From positions 1 through 50,611 of IMG/VR virus record IMGVR_UViG_3300010234_000001: 50,611 nucleotides of DNA; one strand, given 5' to 3'. The notes below the pieces were generated by a model. It was not told where the DNA came from. It searched no databases and was given only the letters and a program-made list of their open reading frames with translations. Source of the DNA: a virus. Lineage: Duplodnaviria; Heunggongvirae; Uroviricota; Caudoviricetes. Both the position numbers and the translations under genes were made by a program. Below are positions 30,591 to 45,932 of the stretch, one piece after another; position 1 is the stretch's first letter; every line of letters starts with the position of its first letter.

Positions 30591-31252
30591 ATCAATTCGA
30601 TTACGGATTAACCGATATAACAACCGATTCCGGGAGGATATACGTTCTCCCGGACGGAACTCAATATCCATCAGTAACTACCGTTCTAGGGCACGTTAAA
30701 CCCCAAGGGATAATTGATTGGGAAGAGCGGATCGGATTGATAGAAGCTGACAGGATTCGTGACATTGCAACATCAAAAGGTTCAAAACTTCATGATCTTG
30801 TTGAAAGATATCTTGACGGACAGAAGCCGGATCACAAAAGGGAATTCCCGGATGTTAACGCACTATTCTTCAAGATAAAATCGGAACTTGATAAGATATC
30901 CAACATCGTATGCCAAGAGGCTGCGCTATATTCGGACGAACTTAAAATTGCCGGTAGGGTTGACTGCGTTGGTAAATATAATGGGCAATACGCTATAATC
31001 GACTTCAAAACAGCATCCAAACCAAAGAAGCCGGAATATATCACCAGCTACTGTGAACAAATAACCGGATATGGGCGAATGTTTTACGAGAGAACTGGCA
31101 TAAATATCAGACGCGGTGTTATTATTATGGCATCACCAATCAAAGGCCAAGTTTTTAAGGTGCGTTTGGATGATCATATCGAATCCTTAAAAGCCAAAAT
31201 AGAAGGATACTATCAAGATGTTGAAGCTAATACTGACACTATTATTGAGTAG
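30584..31252 (+). CDS. PD-(D/E)xK exonuclease
   Basis: YPSVTTVL, G..H..VE.YL, E..LYS..IAGRVDC, IIDFKT, Y..Q..Y. Confidence 0.85.
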   Translation: MVNQFDYGLTDITTDSGRIYVLPDGTQYPSVTTVLGHVKPQGIIDWEERIGLIEADRIRDIATSKGSKLHDLVERYLDGQKPDHKREFPDVNALFFKIKSELDKISNIVCQEAALYSDELKIAGRVDCVGKYNGQYAIIDFKTASKPKKPEYITSYCEQITGYGRMFYERTGINIRRGVIIMASPIKGQVFKVRLDDHIESLKAKIEGYYQDVEANTDTIIE

Positions 31253-32315
31253 TGTTATAATTGTCGGCAGCGCATTCGCGCTTTCCGCCGATAAAACACC
31301 ATTGCCCGCCCATGCGATTGCGTATCAGGCGAGAGCGGCAACAGTCCTTATTCATGCCCATAACAACGCAGTAAAGCCATGGTGGAATGATTCGGTCGGC
31401 ACCGGATTTATGATCGATCCGAATGTATTCATCACGAATTATCACGTCTTTCCAAGATATTTTACGGACGACGTAAAGGTAACGGCGCAAACGTACAATA
31501 CGAGCCGTGAATATGAGGTTGAAGTAATTGCCGCTGATCGCTTGACGGATATTGTCATCTTTGGGATCATTGGATGGAATGAATTTAAGGGAATCGAACC
31601 ATACGGCATTCTAGAATTTGAGGAAAATCCAAAAGGTATTCAATACGCGGATATAACATACGCTTTCGGTCACCCCGGAAGGGCGGATTGGACATTCCTA
31701 AGCGGAATCGTATCTAATCCGAATGGTCATCCGGTCACCGAAATTCAACCAACCACAATGATTCAGACGAATCTAGGCATTGGACCGGGAATGTCGGGTG
31801 GTCCGGTTTTGAGTGAAACAGGAAGGGTTATTGGAATCAGTAATCAAATTATTGATGTTCCCGGAACAAACACCGGTTTTGCCATTCGTTCGGATTCGGC
31901 AATCGAAATTATTTCCGACCTGATGGATGATGATGGTGTTGTTCATTGGCCTAAAATTGGAATCGGAATGAAAGACGATCCGGATTTGCCATACACATTG
32001 ATTGAAGATGTGATTGAAGGTTCTACTGCGGATGGAATATTCCTTCCGGGGGATCAAATTATTTCCATCAATGATCGGAGCGGTGCCAGAGTCAGGGACG
32101 TTCAAGAAGAAATATGGCTATACAATTTGGGTGACGTGCTGGCGTTCGAGATAGAACGGGACGGGGAACGATTGACGAAGATTGTGATAATCAAAGAGGT
32201 TATCACATCCGAAGAATTAAATGAGTTGATTCACGTCTATACTCCAACCCCGCTTCCGCTGGTGGAAATTGCACCGCCACCATCACAACCGGAAACGGAT
32301 GACGAAAATCATTAA
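31218..32315 (+). CDS. secreted HtrA/DegP-like serine protease with a PDZ domain
   Basis: Signal peptide; GTGF, TNYHV (His), TDI (Asp), GMSGGP (Ser); C-terminal IG...GD.I.SIN PDZ. Confidence 0.85.
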   Translation: MLKLILTLLLSSVIIVGSAFALSADKTPLPAHAIAYQARAATVLIHAHNNAVKPWWNDSVGTGFMIDPNVFITNYHVFPRYFTDDVKVTAQTYNTSREYEVEVIAADRLTDIVIFGIIGWNEFKGIEPYGILEFEENPKGIQYADITYAFGHPGRADWTFLSGIVSNPNGHPVTEIQPTTMIQTNLGIGPGMSGGPVLSETGRVIGISNQIIDVPGTNTGFAIRSDSAIEIISDLMDDDGVVHWPKIGIGMKDDPDLPYTLIEDVIEGSTADGIFLPGDQIISINDRSGARVRDVQEEIWLYNLGDVLAFEIERDGERLTKIVIIKEVITSEELNELIHVYTPTPLPLVEIAPPPSQPETDDENH

Positions 32316-32332: not shown

Positions 32333-32361
32333 TTGACATACGACACCGGATGCTATATACT
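32333..32361 (+). promoter_or_regulatory. strong sigma70-like promoter of the tmRNA locus
   Basis: TTGACA-N17-TATACT. Confidence 0.8.
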
Positions 32362-32369
32362 ACAGAAAT

Positions 32370-32428
32370 AATGACCGATGACGGTAATCGGAGGGAAGCA
32401 AGACCGGGGGGCGGTACCCCGCGCCTCT
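32370..32428 (+). pseudogene. relic alphaproteobacterial-type tmRNA acceptor piece without CCA
   Basis: gac-cgggg-GGCGGTA-ccccg-cgcctct followed by aaag instead of ACCA. Confidence 0.65.
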
Positions 32429-32441
32429 AAAGTAGAAAAGT

Positions 32442-32478
32442 TATAAATAGTGCATAGGAGGATAACTCTATGCACTAT
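32442..32478 (+). promoter_or_regulatory. late promoter overlapping a hairpin that sequesters the SD and AUG
   Basis: TATAAATA 32442-32449; atagtgcata 32447-32456 pairs with tatgcactat 32469-32478. Confidence 0.85.
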
Positions 32479-33006
32479 ACGATATACAAAATAACAAACT
32501 TAGTAAACGGTAAAATCTACATCGGAAAACATCAAACCAACAATTTGAACGACAATTACTATTCATCATCAAAAATTTTAATTGATGCTATAAAAAAACA
32601 TGGTAAAGATAATTTTCGAAAAGAAATTTTGTTTGATTTTGATGAAGAAGAAGATATGAATATGAAAGAAGCTGAAATTGTTTCAGAAGAATTTGTCAGT
32701 CGGCAAGACACTTACAATGTCGCATTAGGAGGGAATGGTGGTTGGTCTTACATCAACGATGGTTCCAATGAACACTTGGATAGAGCCAGAAAGGCTTCGA
32801 AGAAAGGCTTTGAAAATGCTAGAAATCACCCAAATTGGGGTAAGACATCCTTTCAAAAAGGTGATCCGAAAGTTGCGCAATTAGCCATAAAAGCAAATGA
32901 ATATAGAAAAAAATATGGTCTGACAAAAGAACATAAAAATAAAATTCGTCAAGCGTCTTTAAAAAGAGAACAACAAAGACGAGAAACTGGATACTATCAG
33001 AAATAA
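32470..33006 (+). CDS. free-standing GIY-YIG (seg-like) homing endonuclease
   Basis: YTIYKITN.VNGKIYIGKHQT, F.KEIL, E.EIV, TYN...GG.GG; paralog of 852..1481. Confidence 0.9.
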   Translation: MHYTIYKITNLVNGKIYIGKHQTNNLNDNYYSSSKILIDAIKKHGKDNFRKEILFDFDEEEDMNMKEAEIVSEEFVSRQDTYNVALGGNGGWSYINDGSNEHLDRARKASKKGFENARNHPNWGKTSFQKGDPKVAQLAIKANEYRKKYGLTKEHKNKIRQASLKREQQRRETGYYQK

Positions 33007-33007
33007 C

Positions 33008-33080
33008 GCTGACTGATAGCTCATCATAGATCGACTGGATTGTGGTATGGACCCGGTTTCGATTACCGGCATCTCCACCA
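33008..33080 (+). ncRNA. ssrA: two-piece tmRNA, acceptor piece (5' end approximate)
   Basis: gac-ccggt-TTCGATT-accgg-CATCTCC-ACCA. Confidence 0.9.
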
Positions 33081-33088
33081 AAATATAT

Positions 33089-33306
33089 GGGGATGAAAGG
33101 ATTTCGACATATACGAAAAGGAAGATTTAGGTGTTCGACAAGATGCTGTCGTTAAATAGAATCACAAACTAAACGCAAACCTAACTGCGAGCAACGACAA
33201 TGTTGCAAATAAGGGTAAGCCTTCTCGCGGAATCGTCAATGACGGTTTCGCTATTGCGGCCTAACCTATGAGCTTCGGGAGTGAGCTTGGAAACAGAATC
33301 ACTCCC
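33089..33306 (+). ncRNA. ssrA: two-piece tmRNA, coding piece; tag ANLTASNDNVANKGKPSRGIVNDGFAIAA* at 33175..33264
   Basis: GGGGATG pairs with CATCTCC including G3:U70; ...TTCGAC D-region; tag ends in AA*; 3' hairpin gggagtga-gcttggaaacagaa-tcactccc. Confidence 0.9.
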
Positions 33307-33319
33307 AACTTATTTGAAT

Positions 33320-33428
33320 CGGAAATGTATCATTAGTTTAACTAGCGGAATCTAGTCAATGCTAGGATGCAGAGAAGGCCCGACCGCTAAAGACTAGAAT
33401 GGGGGTAAGCTCTGGTGATACATTTCCG
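33320..33428 (+). ncRNA. unclassified structured RNA
   Basis: 13-bp perfect closing stem cggaaatgtatca/tgatacatttccg with internal helices; no ORF. Confidence 0.5.
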
Positions 33429-34319: not shown

Positions 34320-34892
34320 ATGAACCTAGAACCAGAAGAGACATACCGACTATACCTTGCAATTAAAGCGCATTTCAAGTCGGACTACGATTACTTCAAA
34401 TACCACGGCAAAGTTAAGACGGGAGATTTTAGAAAGCGAAAGGATCGCTTTGCATTCCATAGACTGGCTAAAAAGTATGATAACGAAGACATTATTGATT
34501 TTTTGGTTTCAAACTGCGTTTATCTACCGGAAAAAGACTTTTGGATATCAAATCTATTGTCGGTGGATTCCGACATTATATTTCAGCGATTTAGAGAATA
34601 CAAACAAAATTTTCCAAAACATTTCATTGAAGAAATAAAACAGTTGCGGAAAGAATTTCCGCGATTTTTGGCTGTGGAAAACGGCCAGCTACCTTACATC
34701 ATTAAAGGGTTGATTGGCGGGCATGTCTCTTATCAGACTGTTGTCGCCACAAATCAGGTTTGCCCTTTTTATGACGATATCGAAGATGACCTAATATGGC
34801 CGGATGTTCGGACGAAATTAGTCAACTTCAAGCCGTTCGTGTGGTTTGACCACGCGGAGACCGCAGCGGTGCTGCGACAAGAAGTGACTTGA
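34320..34892 (+). CDS. 59: helicase loader (gp59-like)
   Basis: Y..YLAIK.HF..YDYFKY.GK, F.KRKDR..F..L..KY. Confidence 0.85.
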   Translation: MNLEPEETYRLYLAIKAHFKSDYDYFKYHGKVKTGDFRKRKDRFAFHRLAKKYDNEDIIDFLVSNCVYLPEKDFWISNLLSVDSDIIFQRFREYKQNFPKHFIEEIKQLRKEFPRFLAVENGQLPYIIKGLIGGHVSYQTVVATNQVCPFYDDIEDDLIWPDVRTKLVNFKPFVWFDHAETAAVLRQEVT

Positions 34893-34986: not shown

Positions 34987-35910
34987 ATGGATTTTAAGAC
35001 ACTAAAAAAGTCTGCTAAGGACTTTTCATCACTATCTAAGAAGATCGAAGAAATTAACAACCCAAAGTCCTCATATGGGGATGAAGACGAAAACTTCTGG
35101 CAGCCCGAAGTGGATAAGAGCGGGAATGGCTATGCGGTTATTCGGTTCCTGCCACAACCGGCAGCGGACGGTGACGAAGGAACTCCCTTCGTTCATTACT
35201 TCCGACACGCATTTCAGGGTCCGGAAGGTGATTGGTATATTGAAAACGATCTAACTACGCTTGGTAAGAAAGACCCTTGCACGGATTACAATAACGTACT
35301 CTGGAAGAAAGGTCATGAAGATCAGGCAAGAAAACAGAAAAGAAAACTATACTACGTTTCGAATATTCTCGTAATCGAAGACCCGGCAAATCCGGAAAAC
35401 GAAGGAAAGATTTTCTACTACCGTTACGGTAAGAAGATTTTTGAGAAGATCGAAGCGGCAATGCACCCGAAGTTCAAGGATCAGGAAGGATACAATCCGT
35501 TCGATCTTTGGGAAGGTGCAAACTTCAGCTTAAGAATTATGAAGAAGGACGGTTTCAGAAACTATGACGAATCAAGCTTTGCACCGCGAAGCGAGGTTGG
35601 TGAGAGTGATGCGGACCGCGAAAGAATTTGGAAGGCGGAACGTACCCTTCTAAAGTTCACGAATCCGGATCGATTCAAGAGCTATGAAGACCTTCAGGAG
35701 AGACTAGAGACGGTTCTAGGCATTGACTTGGAAGCAATCCTTAACAAGAAAAAGGAACGTGCAACCACAGTCTCGGAAGTCGCAAAGAAACCGGAGCCAA
35801 GAACGGTCGAAGATGACGATGCTGAAGAAGCGGTCCATGAAATGGATGAAGATGAGGATGACAGCGGAGACTTGGATTCCCAAGTTGAAGCAATCCTTAA
35901 AGGCAAATAA
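34987..35910 (+). CDS. 32: single-stranded DNA-binding protein (gp32-like)
   Basis: DKSGNGYAVIRFLP, WYIEN, KRKL.Y.SNI, YGKKIF, GANF.L, NYD.S.F; acidic tail. Confidence 0.95.
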   Translation: MDFKTLKKSAKDFSSLSKKIEEINNPKSSYGDEDENFWQPEVDKSGNGYAVIRFLPQPAADGDEGTPFVHYFRHAFQGPEGDWYIENDLTTLGKKDPCTDYNNVLWKKGHEDQARKQKRKLYYVSNILVIEDPANPENEGKIFYYRYGKKIFEKIEAAMHPKFKDQEGYNPFDLWEGANFSLRIMKKDGFRNYDESSFAPRSEVGESDADRERIWKAERTLLKFTNPDRFKSYEDLQERLETVLGIDLEAILNKKKERATTVSEVAKKPEPRTVEDDDAEEAVHEMDEDEDDSGDLDSQVEAILKGK

Positions 35911-44720: not shown

Positions 44721-45932
44721 ATGGCTTTGGCCGAACAATTTATGGAACAAACCGCTTCTTATGATGTTTTTATTGAAGGAATTTCACCCCGATTTGCAAA
44801 TGAAGTAGTGGCGGGGGATATCACGATGATGGAATCATTGCTATCCCCTTCGCTGGAAACTATTGTCAATTTTGAAGCGCCAATCCACGAATCGGACGGC
44901 GTGTCATTCAAGAATTGGGATTTGTTTCGCGGAAACAAGATGACAATCGAATACGGAAACCCGAACATCAGTCCGGGGAGACACCAGAGCGTCACGCAAT
45001 ACATTTATCGCATGGAGAATCGCCAGTACGATAATTCCAACAAAGAAACATTCACGCTGCGCGCCTGCGACGAAACCGTCATCAACAATCAGCGAAGACG
45101 CATGTCCAAGCAATTCGACTGCGAGACGCCAACCACCGTGGCGGGAGAAGCGCTACGCTGCATAGGGGCTAGTCGCGTGGATATGGACGACTCCGGTCCG
45201 ACGCGGAATTACATAGCGGAAAACGTCCATCCGTTCCAAGTGCTATCCGATCAAGCGGACGTAGCGCTATACGGGGATGATCCGTCATTCCTGCATTACA
45301 TGACATATCTTGGCGGGGGGACGCACCATTTTAGATCATTCAAATCCCTGATCGAAAAAGATACCAGATGGGATTATTTCAAGAACGATCCGGGATTTGG
45401 GGGTAGCTTTATGGGAAACCCTTATAACATCATGGCTTACGAGTTTCCTTGCGATTTTGATTTGCTCACGGATATCCTGAATGGCATCAACGATGATGGC
45501 ACCATGGCCCGGTCGCTTACCACCATCAACCCGTTTACCGGGGCTGTAAGCCTTGTGGAAGGCGATTTGACCGCATGCGGGGGTATGGGCGAGGCAATCA
45601 ACGAAGAGGTTGTGAGCGACGCGGGGACGGATAATGAATGCGGCGTGAAGGTTGAAGAGTATCATCTGAAGCGTCAGGCGCGATTGTCGTTGATCCAACC
45701 GGACAAGCTATCCTTGCGAATGGTTGTTCCGTTCAACCCGCTGCTAGTGTGCGGGGATATGATTGATGTGACGTTCCCGATCCGACCAATTCAGGGGCAG
45801 CACACAATCGAGAAAGACTACGGGAGTGGTGAATACATGATCGTGACCCTGAAGCACCAGCTAAGCCAAGGCGCTCACGGGGTCACGATGATAGAGGCGG
45901 TAAGCGATTCGATTCGGAATAACCTAACCTAA
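44721..45932 (+). CDS. baseplate hub protein (gp27-like)
   Basis: Follows gp53; C-terminal VP....L.CGD.I.V...SG.Y.I..L.H hub pattern. Confidence 0.6.
   Translation: MALAEQFMEQTASYDVFIEGISPRFANEVVAGDITMMESLLSPSLETIVNFEAPIHESDGVSFKNWDLFRGNKMTIEYGNPNISPGRHQSVTQYIYRMENRQYDNSNKETFTLRACDETVINNQRRRMSKQFDCETPTTVAGEALRCIGASRVDMDDSGPTRNYIAENVHPFQVLSDQADVALYGDDPSFLHYMTYLGGGTHHFRSFKSLIEKDTRWDYFKNDPGFGGSFMGNPYNIMAYEFPCDFDLLTDILNGINDDGTMARSLTTINPFTGAVSLVEGDLTACGGMGEAINEEVVSDAGTDNECGVKVEEYHLKRQARLSLIQPDKLSLRMVVPFNPLLVCGDMIDVTFPIRPIQGQHTIEKDYGSGEYMIVTLKHQLSQGAHGVTMIEAVSDSIRNNLT

Follow-up and report, generated by a model that had tools for sequence, protein, structure and literature searches.

SegB of phage T4 represents the one characterised homing endonuclease family whose recognition site comprises the T loop and CCA end of transfer RNA (tRNA) genes; the enzyme recognises GGTTCRANTCC, a degenerate stretch and CCAR, and cuts beside the CCA (PMC2330249). 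In phage T6, SegB-dependent amplification produces 718-bp units consisting of a tRNA-Tyr gene and a segB that is missing 28 C-terminal residues, with a unit junction formed where the tRNA's 5' end shares microhomology with segB at its 3' end, and the short form of SegB is non-toxic (PMC13096335). Marine T4-like phages, including the OM43 phage Melnitz and the pelagimyophages (PMC9004378), carry transfer-messenger RNA (tmRNA) genes of the alpha type that are encoded in two pieces, with the acceptor piece upstream of the coding piece (RF01849/RF04321, PMC11915505). The present analysis concerns a locus at positions 32333-33355 of the window, which is the first 50.6 kb (50,611 nucleotides) of IMG/VR virus record IMGVR_UViG_3300010234_000001, a record of 178,611 bp with terminal repeats. 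By its sequence the locus is a single transcription unit of three parts: an alpha-type promoter with an acceptor piece, here called the relic; a SegB-family nuclease cassette; and a complete permuted tmRNA gene with an acceptor piece of its own, here called the live acceptor. Its origin is probably, although far from certainly, a nuclease-associated recombination mediated by microhomology, which joined two tmRNA alleles and orphaned the older acceptor, so that the relic and the nuclease gene would now constitute the leader of the tmRNA precursor.

The promoter, relic, GIY-YIG gene and live acceptor reported in the original prediction are all present where it placed them, and they are arranged with the other features of the unit as follows.

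32333-32361, plus strand: early sigma-70-type promoter, TTGACA-17-TATACT, agreeing at 11 of 12 positions
32357-32371, plus strand: direct repeat copy 1, ATACTACAGAAATAA, made up of the end of the -10 box and the first leader bases of the transcript
32362-32428, plus strand: orphaned alpha-type acceptor piece (the relic), with leader, hairpin 32375-32391, AGAC, T arm 32405-32421 and acceptor 3' strand CGCCTCT 32422-32428
32442-32449, plus strand: T4-type late promoter motif TATAAATA of the nuclease cassette, found at the same place before the ATG in relatives L166, L168, L170, L172 and L174
32447-32478, plus strand: 11-pair hairpin (32447-32457 with 32468-32478), within which the Shine-Dalgarno sequence AGGAGG (32456-32461) is hidden together with the AUG (32470)
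32470-33006, plus strand: SegB-family GIY-YIG homing endonuclease gene, 178 residues, catalytic domain intact and C-terminal module missing
32991-33006, plus strand: direct repeat copy 2, ATACTATCAGAAATAA, coding for the last nuclease residues and the stop codon
33018-33080, plus strand: live acceptor piece (E 1.9e-10), with GGAC 33049-33052, T arm CCGGT-TTCGATT-ACCGG 33053-33069, CATCTCC 33070-33076 and ACCA 33077-33080
33081-33088, plus strand: intervening segment AAATATAT, 8 bases
33089-33355, plus strand: coding piece, with 5' strand GGGGATG, a 29-residue tag frame at 33175-33264 with AIAA at its end, and a pseudoknot of the alpha-phage type with GCTTGGAAACAGAATC

The locus resembles the SegB systems of T4 and T6 in that its nuclease is about 40% identical over its full length to T-even segB, is wedged between tRNA-like genes and lies in a late-promoter cassette. 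It shares with the T6 unit a C-terminally truncated nuclease whose 3' end is joined, at a microhomology, to the 5' region of the next tRNA-like gene, and its unit of about 635 bp is of comparable form. It differs in that the flanking elements are tmRNA acceptor pieces belonging to two different alleles, and in that there is one unit rather than a ladder of identical repeats. With the alpha-type tmRNAs of marine T4-like phages the unit has in common an early promoter directly upstream, the T loop GGCNGTA in the relic, an alpha-phage-type tag end and pseudoknot in the live copy, and a location that in its relatives is upstream of gp59/gp32, but the live domain has a TTCGATT loop, a U53:A61 closing pair, a CAUCUCC/GGGGAUG stem, an 8-base intervening segment and a 29-residue tag. 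The displaced tRNA and tmRNA gene fragments that integrases leave at the ends of genomic islands (Islander, PMC4383910) are similar in that an earlier insertion of DNA is marked by a duplicated piece of a tRNA-like gene which does not function; in the window, however, there is no integrase, the fragment is a 5'-proximal acceptor with its promoter rather than a 3' duplicate, and the two copies are not identical.

The relic and the live tmRNA

By its profile match, the upstream element, which had been noted as a look-alike of a tmRNA 3' end, is a real alpha-type acceptor homologue rather than a chance resemblance. A pattern scan of viral contigs for alpha-type acceptors returned 125, with T loops GGCAGTA (69), GGCGGTA (23), TGCGATA (16) and others. 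An nhmmer profile was built on 118 distinct viral-contig pieces of the alpha acceptor type, each taken from 60 bases upstream through the CCA, and it has a single match in the whole genome, both strands included, at 32354-32427 (E 4.2e-7). This match spans the -10 box, the first hairpin, the T arm and CGCCTC, and reaches 50 bases upstream of the T-arm hairpin, in which the stem CGGGG/CCCCG (32405-32409 and 32417-32421) encloses the loop GGCGGTA (32410-32416). The 26-base core of the relic, GACCGGGGGGCGGTACCCCGCGCCTC, is identical in viral loci L079, L082 and L140 and also in two alphaproteobacterial genomes, a Rhodospirillales metagenome-assembled genome and a Hoeflea sp., in both of which CACCA comes next and GGGGGCG later. 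Only the 3' end of the relic differs from the working alleles: there is a T for the last C of the stem, and CGCCTCT is followed by AAAG where ACCA would be expected, so that no CCA is encoded. The description of the relic as host-type is accurate as regards the alphaproteobacterial type of its sequence, for which the two genomes with an identical core are the evidence; it does not establish a host origin, since the GGCGGTA-type acceptor, besides occurring in Alphaproteobacteria, is carried by more than 100 phage tmRNA genes, including those of relatives with the same gene order. The AGAC of the relic, in place of GGAC, was considered as a defect and rejected, because working alleles L288 and L319 also begin AGAC.

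Two further features of the relic sequence may be recorded here. Directly after CGCCTCT, AAAGTAGA resembles AAAGGAGA, the start of alpha-type intervening segments, as though only ACCA had been deleted; such segments in L061, L093, L100, L103, L110, L117, L121, L136 and L160 (159-183 bases) open, after ACCA, with AAAGGAG and a short open reading frame (ORF) encoding a conserved peptide of the form ..(I/L)GDSDEEPSS(K/T)K... In addition, the leader sequence GATGACGGTAATCG (32377-32390) and the sequence CGATTACCGGCATC of the live T loop and stem (33060-33073) are complementary at 13 of 14 positions (blastn E 0.026 in a small search), which may reflect chance or pairing inside the precursor.

The feature that decides the status of the relic is the absence of a partner 5' strand, and on this basis it is an orphan. 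The original prediction, that only the second acceptor pairs cleanly with GGGGATG, holds when the strands are read against each other: GGGGAUG and CAUCUCC form 7 pairs including G3:U70, whereas CGCCUCU of the relic gives the wobble pairs G1:U72, G3:U70 and U6:G67 and an A5xC68 mismatch. In cofolding calculations the gain on binding the coding piece is −13.1 kcal/mol for the live acceptor and −2.5 kcal/mol for the relic, the latter being poorer than the average of its own shuffles (−4.2 ± 2.3 kcal/mol), and on both the pairing and the cofold the idea that the live coding piece might also use the relic as its acceptor was rejected. No alpha-type 5' half that could provide the partner strand is present elsewhere in the 178.6-kb genome; AGAGGCG at 45893 was considered for this role and rejected as a chance 7-mer within a 403-residue ORF. 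A search of the phage for SmpB or a CCA-adding enzyme, either of which might rescue an acceptor that lacks CCA, found none. Since CCA is not always encoded (PMC11915505), its loss does not by itself prove that the relic is dead; what makes the relic an orphan is the lack of a partner. The relic is thus an acceptor piece with neither a CCA end nor a complementary 5' strand.

The live copy, by comparison with these same features, has an acceptor upstream, a pairing 5' strand, a G3:U70 alanine identity pair and a tag frame with the hydrophobic ending ...AA. It scores 93.4 bits with Rfam RF04321 at 33018-33264 (cut-off 47 bits), and ARAGORN calls a permuted tmRNA at 32987-33355. A profile of alpha coding pieces matches it at 33166-33328 (E 4.1e-16), through the tag end and pseudoknot, and a mixed profile of canonical-type coding pieces gave no match in the window, although the alignment underlying that profile is probably poor. 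The live T arm and acceptor (33049-33081) are identical at 33 of 33 positions to tag-less mini-tmRNA genes in phage tRNA arrays on two metagenome contigs, L346 and L347, which are the only metagenome loci with the exact live acceptor; neither viral contigs nor 185,579 bacterial species genomes contain it. The mini-tmRNAs (L346, reverse strand, about 704-787 of the reversed locus; L347, reversed, about 1897-1980) are in standard order and about 85 bases long; in each, a short connector joins a 5' half that begins GGGGATG to a 3' half. ARAGORN does not call them. The L347 array also holds a GIY-YIG ORF.

The closest natural relative of the live tag end and pseudoknot is L254, which has the same gene order as the window. 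The possibility that the live tmRNA is a chimera of a beta-like tRNA domain with an alpha-like coding piece is weakened by L254, which naturally joins the same T arm to an alpha-type pseudoknot and tag start. The T arm with the U53:A61 closing pair, GGTTTCGATTACC, is found in 20 viral tmRNA loci of both one-piece and two-piece organisation (including L327-L345) and is a widespread phage variant; its interpretation as a mark of immunity to the nuclease specific to this phage was dropped, as it occurs in these 20 loci and those inspected have no adjacent nuclease gene. Among beta-like permuted phage tmRNAs, L011, L022 and L030 have an intervening segment of 87-103 bases in which a Shine-Dalgarno sequence is accompanied by a short hydrophobic ORF whose product begins MFENWHWQY...

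The truncated nuclease, the duplicated leader and the promoters

The nuclease ORF matches Pfam PF19835 (30.9 bits) and PHROG 314 (E 1.4e-43) and, across its full 178 residues, has 39.6% identity to the segB of phage RB18, a gene that lies between tRNA-Gly and tRNA-Ser. Its closest relatives in viral contigs are 44-65% identical, and 11 of the 12 closest (L166-L176) are within tRNA arrays. In an alignment of the nuclease with its relatives (A1), Y6, Y17-I18-G19, E67 and N83 are invariant, but the window protein ends 25-45 residues before the others and does not have their conserved C-terminal KW...GW..GR module. It therefore combines the GIY-YIG catalytic domain, the homology to segB and the residence between tRNA-like genes that are characteristic of SegB with an incomplete C-terminal DNA-binding region. 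The position of its start is like that in the relatives, in which the ATG is mostly 40-67 bases past a tRNA (134 in L169) with TATAAATA between; in the window it is 41 bases past the relic. The stop codon abuts the live acceptor piece, and two of the relatives overlap the following tRNA at their 3' end.

The stop codon is contained in a repeat of the beginning of the transcript. Within the 178.6 kb, both strands included, the 15-base leader sequence is found with at most 1 edit only at 32357 and 32991, and a match of this quality arose in 20 of 20000 shuffles of 32471-33100 (p about 0.001). On this match, copy 2 is the ghost of the -10 box and leader of the live tmRNA gene. Past the leader, the two acceptor pieces have no significant similarity. 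The truncation of the nuclease together with the placement of its stop codon in a duplicated leader points to a microhomology junction like that formed by SegB in T6, and not to a simple homing tract.

Between 32362 and the tmRNA there is no further promoter-like site with a score of 9 of 12 or more; therefore the tmRNA is probably made from the promoter at 32333, by transcription through the relic and the nuclease gene. This is the original promoter of the alpha-type tmRNA gene, and expression of the relic, the nuclease gene and the live tmRNA would now depend on it. A second early promoter, at G000:C1:177126-177170 and outside the window, repeats the -10 box and start of the tmRNA promoter, TATATACTACAG. 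The layout of hairpin and late promoter is one known from T4, where messages read through from early promoters do not allow translation, which is confined to late transcripts with their start inside the hairpin (reviewed in PMC2988022). The fold predicted for 32366-32480 has a minimum free energy of −38.4 kcal/mol (z −4.15, with 0 of 200 shuffles as stable), and TATAAATA is located at the 5' edge of the hairpin that contains the Shine-Dalgarno sequence and AUG.

Same-order relatives and the probable resident allele

The window is T4-like, with genes for the gp59 loader (34320-34892) and gp32 (34987-35910), and the tmRNA and nuclease are between this replication module and a gene for a trypsin/PDZ protease (31218-32315). 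The protease has no match among viral contigs and only itself among 5.8 billion proteins, and relatives of gp59 reach 32% identity at most. Three distant relatives, L038, L044 and L254, have the same gene order, with one two-piece tmRNA upstream of gp59/gp32 and no endonuclease. L038 and L044 have alpha T loops, acceptors ending CGCCTCCACCA and intervening segments of 136 and 100 bases, respectively, before GGGGGCG. L254 has the T arm GCGGT-TTCGATT-ACCGC, an acceptor that likewise ends CGCCTCCACCA, a 42-base intervening segment before GGGGGCG and a gp32 that is 43% identical to that of the window; the ORF adjoining its tmRNA has no Pfam match. The nuclease-free alleles foreseen in the original prediction, in which this acceptor end would be followed directly by GGGGGCG, are thus closely approached in L038, L044 and L254, which have both sequences but with the intervening segment between them. 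Nuclease-free relatives that already carry both acceptors, an arrangement with which that prediction would be at odds, were not seen, each of the three having a single acceptor.

Because the same-order relatives carry a tmRNA at this locus and L044 shares the -10 box and leader of the relic (with about 80% identity over the -10 box and start region), the preferred reading of the relic is that it is the allele resident in this phage lineage. Both types of T loop are found at the locus within the phage family and, from the comparison of L254 with the alpha-type relatives and the identity of the live acceptor with the mini-tmRNAs, the tRNA-like domain looks exchangeable.

Nuclease genes of other families occupy intervening segments of 481-511 bases in intact permuted tmRNAs, of the HNH type in L266 (1683-2226) and L288 (2592-3123) and of the LAGLIDADG type in L285 (3173-3735). 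A 2025 tmRNA database paper mentions nuclease genes only within group I introns of tmRNA, and homing endonuclease genes within the intervening segments of permuted phage tmRNAs were not found in the papers that were searched. These three loci are like the window in that the nuclease gene starts just past an acceptor, in sequence that processing would discard. Their acceptors, however, keep the CCA and match the 5' strands of their own coding pieces, whereas in the window the upstream acceptor fails to pair with the coding piece and a second acceptor is interposed before it. By this comparison the window is a derived form, in which a nuclease-bearing segment has been bypassed by a second acceptor; it is the orphan-acceptor state that is new.

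Origin of the locus and its meaning

The history that would account for these features begins with a nuclease gene just past the CCA end of the acceptor, the position taken by its relatives after tRNAs and by the other nuclease families in tmRNA intervening segments. A break and its repair would then have fused the nuclease gene, in its 3' part, with the leader belonging to a second tmRNA allele, by way of a short stretch of sequence common to both. The C-terminal DNA-binding module of the nuclease would have been lost in this event, as would the coding piece of the old gene and the greater part of the second promoter, and the old acceptor, left without a partner, would have become a relic. 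At present the early promoter would yield a long precursor with a 5' leader of about 650 bases composed of the relic and an untranslated nuclease message, from which tRNA-processing enzymes would free the live acceptor and coding pieces; the nuclease, if translated at all, would be translated only from late transcripts initiated inside the hairpin.

It should be recognized that several points weigh against this history. When the two regions were put to a general Smith-Waterman shuffle test, the outcome was only 25 of 500, and the leader repeat was noticed first and tested afterwards. The acceptor pieces are too different to be products of a recent tandem duplication, so that one must assume either a second allele or, for the tRNA-like domain, a donor from outside. 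The nuclease is only 40% identical to characterised SegB, and a SegB-like target is therefore no more than a candidate. The relic is structurally perfect, and could reflect either a recent event or retention for a function. The scheme of transcription, processing and translation is a prediction from sequence, and the order of events has been inferred from one genome, because no close relative of the phage is present in the collections searched.

The nearest competitor to the joining of two alleles is a decay of tandem tmRNA genes, one of alpha type and one with a canonical T loop, in which the nuclease was inserted after the first acceptor and the first coding piece was subsequently lost by a deletion that extended as far as the second -10 box. 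This is considerably less probable, although it predicts an identical final structure, the leader repeat suits two copies of one promoter and leader, and L279 carries two tandem tmRNA-like coding pieces. Between the latter (about 2170-2770) lie a small ORF and a promoter; in the first the tag begins much as it does in the window (A.TASNDNV), and the second has a decayed tRNA-like 5' half with the tag and pseudoknot intact. The tandem history requires an insertion plus a deletion ending exactly in the C-terminal region of the nuclease, and the same-order relatives L038, L044 and L254 provide no case of two acceptors; a single genome gives no separation of it from recombination between alleles.

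In classical intron-less homing, as originally proposed, an alpha-type allele would have been cut and the nuclease of the donor copied together with its linked tmRNA, replacing everything to the right of the acceptor stem. The component of that proposal which survives is the presence of a SegB-family homing endonuclease between two acceptors. It is also in keeping with homing that the homology of the relic ends exactly beside the position of the CCA, where enzymes of the SegB type cut (PMC2330249), and that the 33-base identity of the live tRNA-like domain with the mini-tmRNAs of other phages suggests a horizontal origin. Clean homing is nonetheless unlikely, because co-conversion between homologous flanks would have erased the old acceptor, and neither a truncated nuclease nor a duplicated leader is expected from it. 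Shared sequence to the left of the nuclease would be needed, and none is seen between the 3' end of the relic and the nuclease junctions of the relatives. Moreover, the alpha T loop is a poor target, matching the SegB T-loop motif by sequence at 7 of 11 positions, compared with 9 of 11 for the live T arm. Joining by microhomology, whether of two tmRNA alleles or of two tandem genes, is therefore the most likely origin, ahead of clean homing.

Retention of the relic, either as a stabilising or processing element of the precursor leader or as a decoy for SmpB or another partner of the tRNA domain, is distinctly improbable. In its favour, no disabling mutation is seen in the T arm or leader hairpin of the relic, both of which match working alleles exactly, a tag-less tmRNA-like RNA of phage DS6A has been reported to inhibit host tmRNA (cited in PMC11915505), and tag-less mini-tmRNA genes do occur in phage tRNA arrays. 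Against this, the relic by itself folds no better than its own shuffles (z −1.10), and without a 5' strand there is no acceptor stem and no charging; conservation would need a second genome where only one exists, and a recent event explains the perfect preservation equally well. The last alternative, a chance GC-rich hairpin in a 5' untranslated region that resembles a T arm, would agree with the Rfam alpha_tmRNA model scoring only the 17-base T-arm hairpin (E 0.28), but is refuted by the unique genome-wide profile match with its 50-base extension upstream of the hairpin, the 26-base core exactly as in real tmRNA genes and the promoter and leader in common with L044.

If two alleles were joined in the manner favoured here, the locus is a natural fossil of the rearrangement that SegB has been shown to produce in the laboratory, the union of a tRNA with a truncated segB via microhomology, with tmRNA in the place of the tRNA. 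It would indicate that a modular two-piece tmRNA gene can lose and then regain its acceptor piece and remain working. For annotation it is a caution that phage tmRNA loci may hold orphan acceptor pieces which are missed by standard tools. A broader proposition, possible but advanced only tentatively, is that SegB-family nucleases may home to the T arm and CCA of phage tmRNA genes and in this way promote the exchange of whole tRNA-like domains between tmRNA alleles and the tag-less mini-tmRNAs of tRNA arrays. The alpha allele, the live allele and the mini-tmRNA are concrete substrates for the question of whether SegB-like enzymes cut tmRNA genes. Under the broader proposition, the non-canonical alpha T loop and the U53:A61 variant would be resistance alleles and orphan acceptors would be scars. 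The type of tmRNA in a phage has been used to infer the history of its hosts, as for Melnitz (PMC9004378), and a swap of the tRNA-like domain driven by nucleases would weaken such inference; the diversity of marine phage tmRNAs would then have been shaped by selfish nucleases rather than by host matching.

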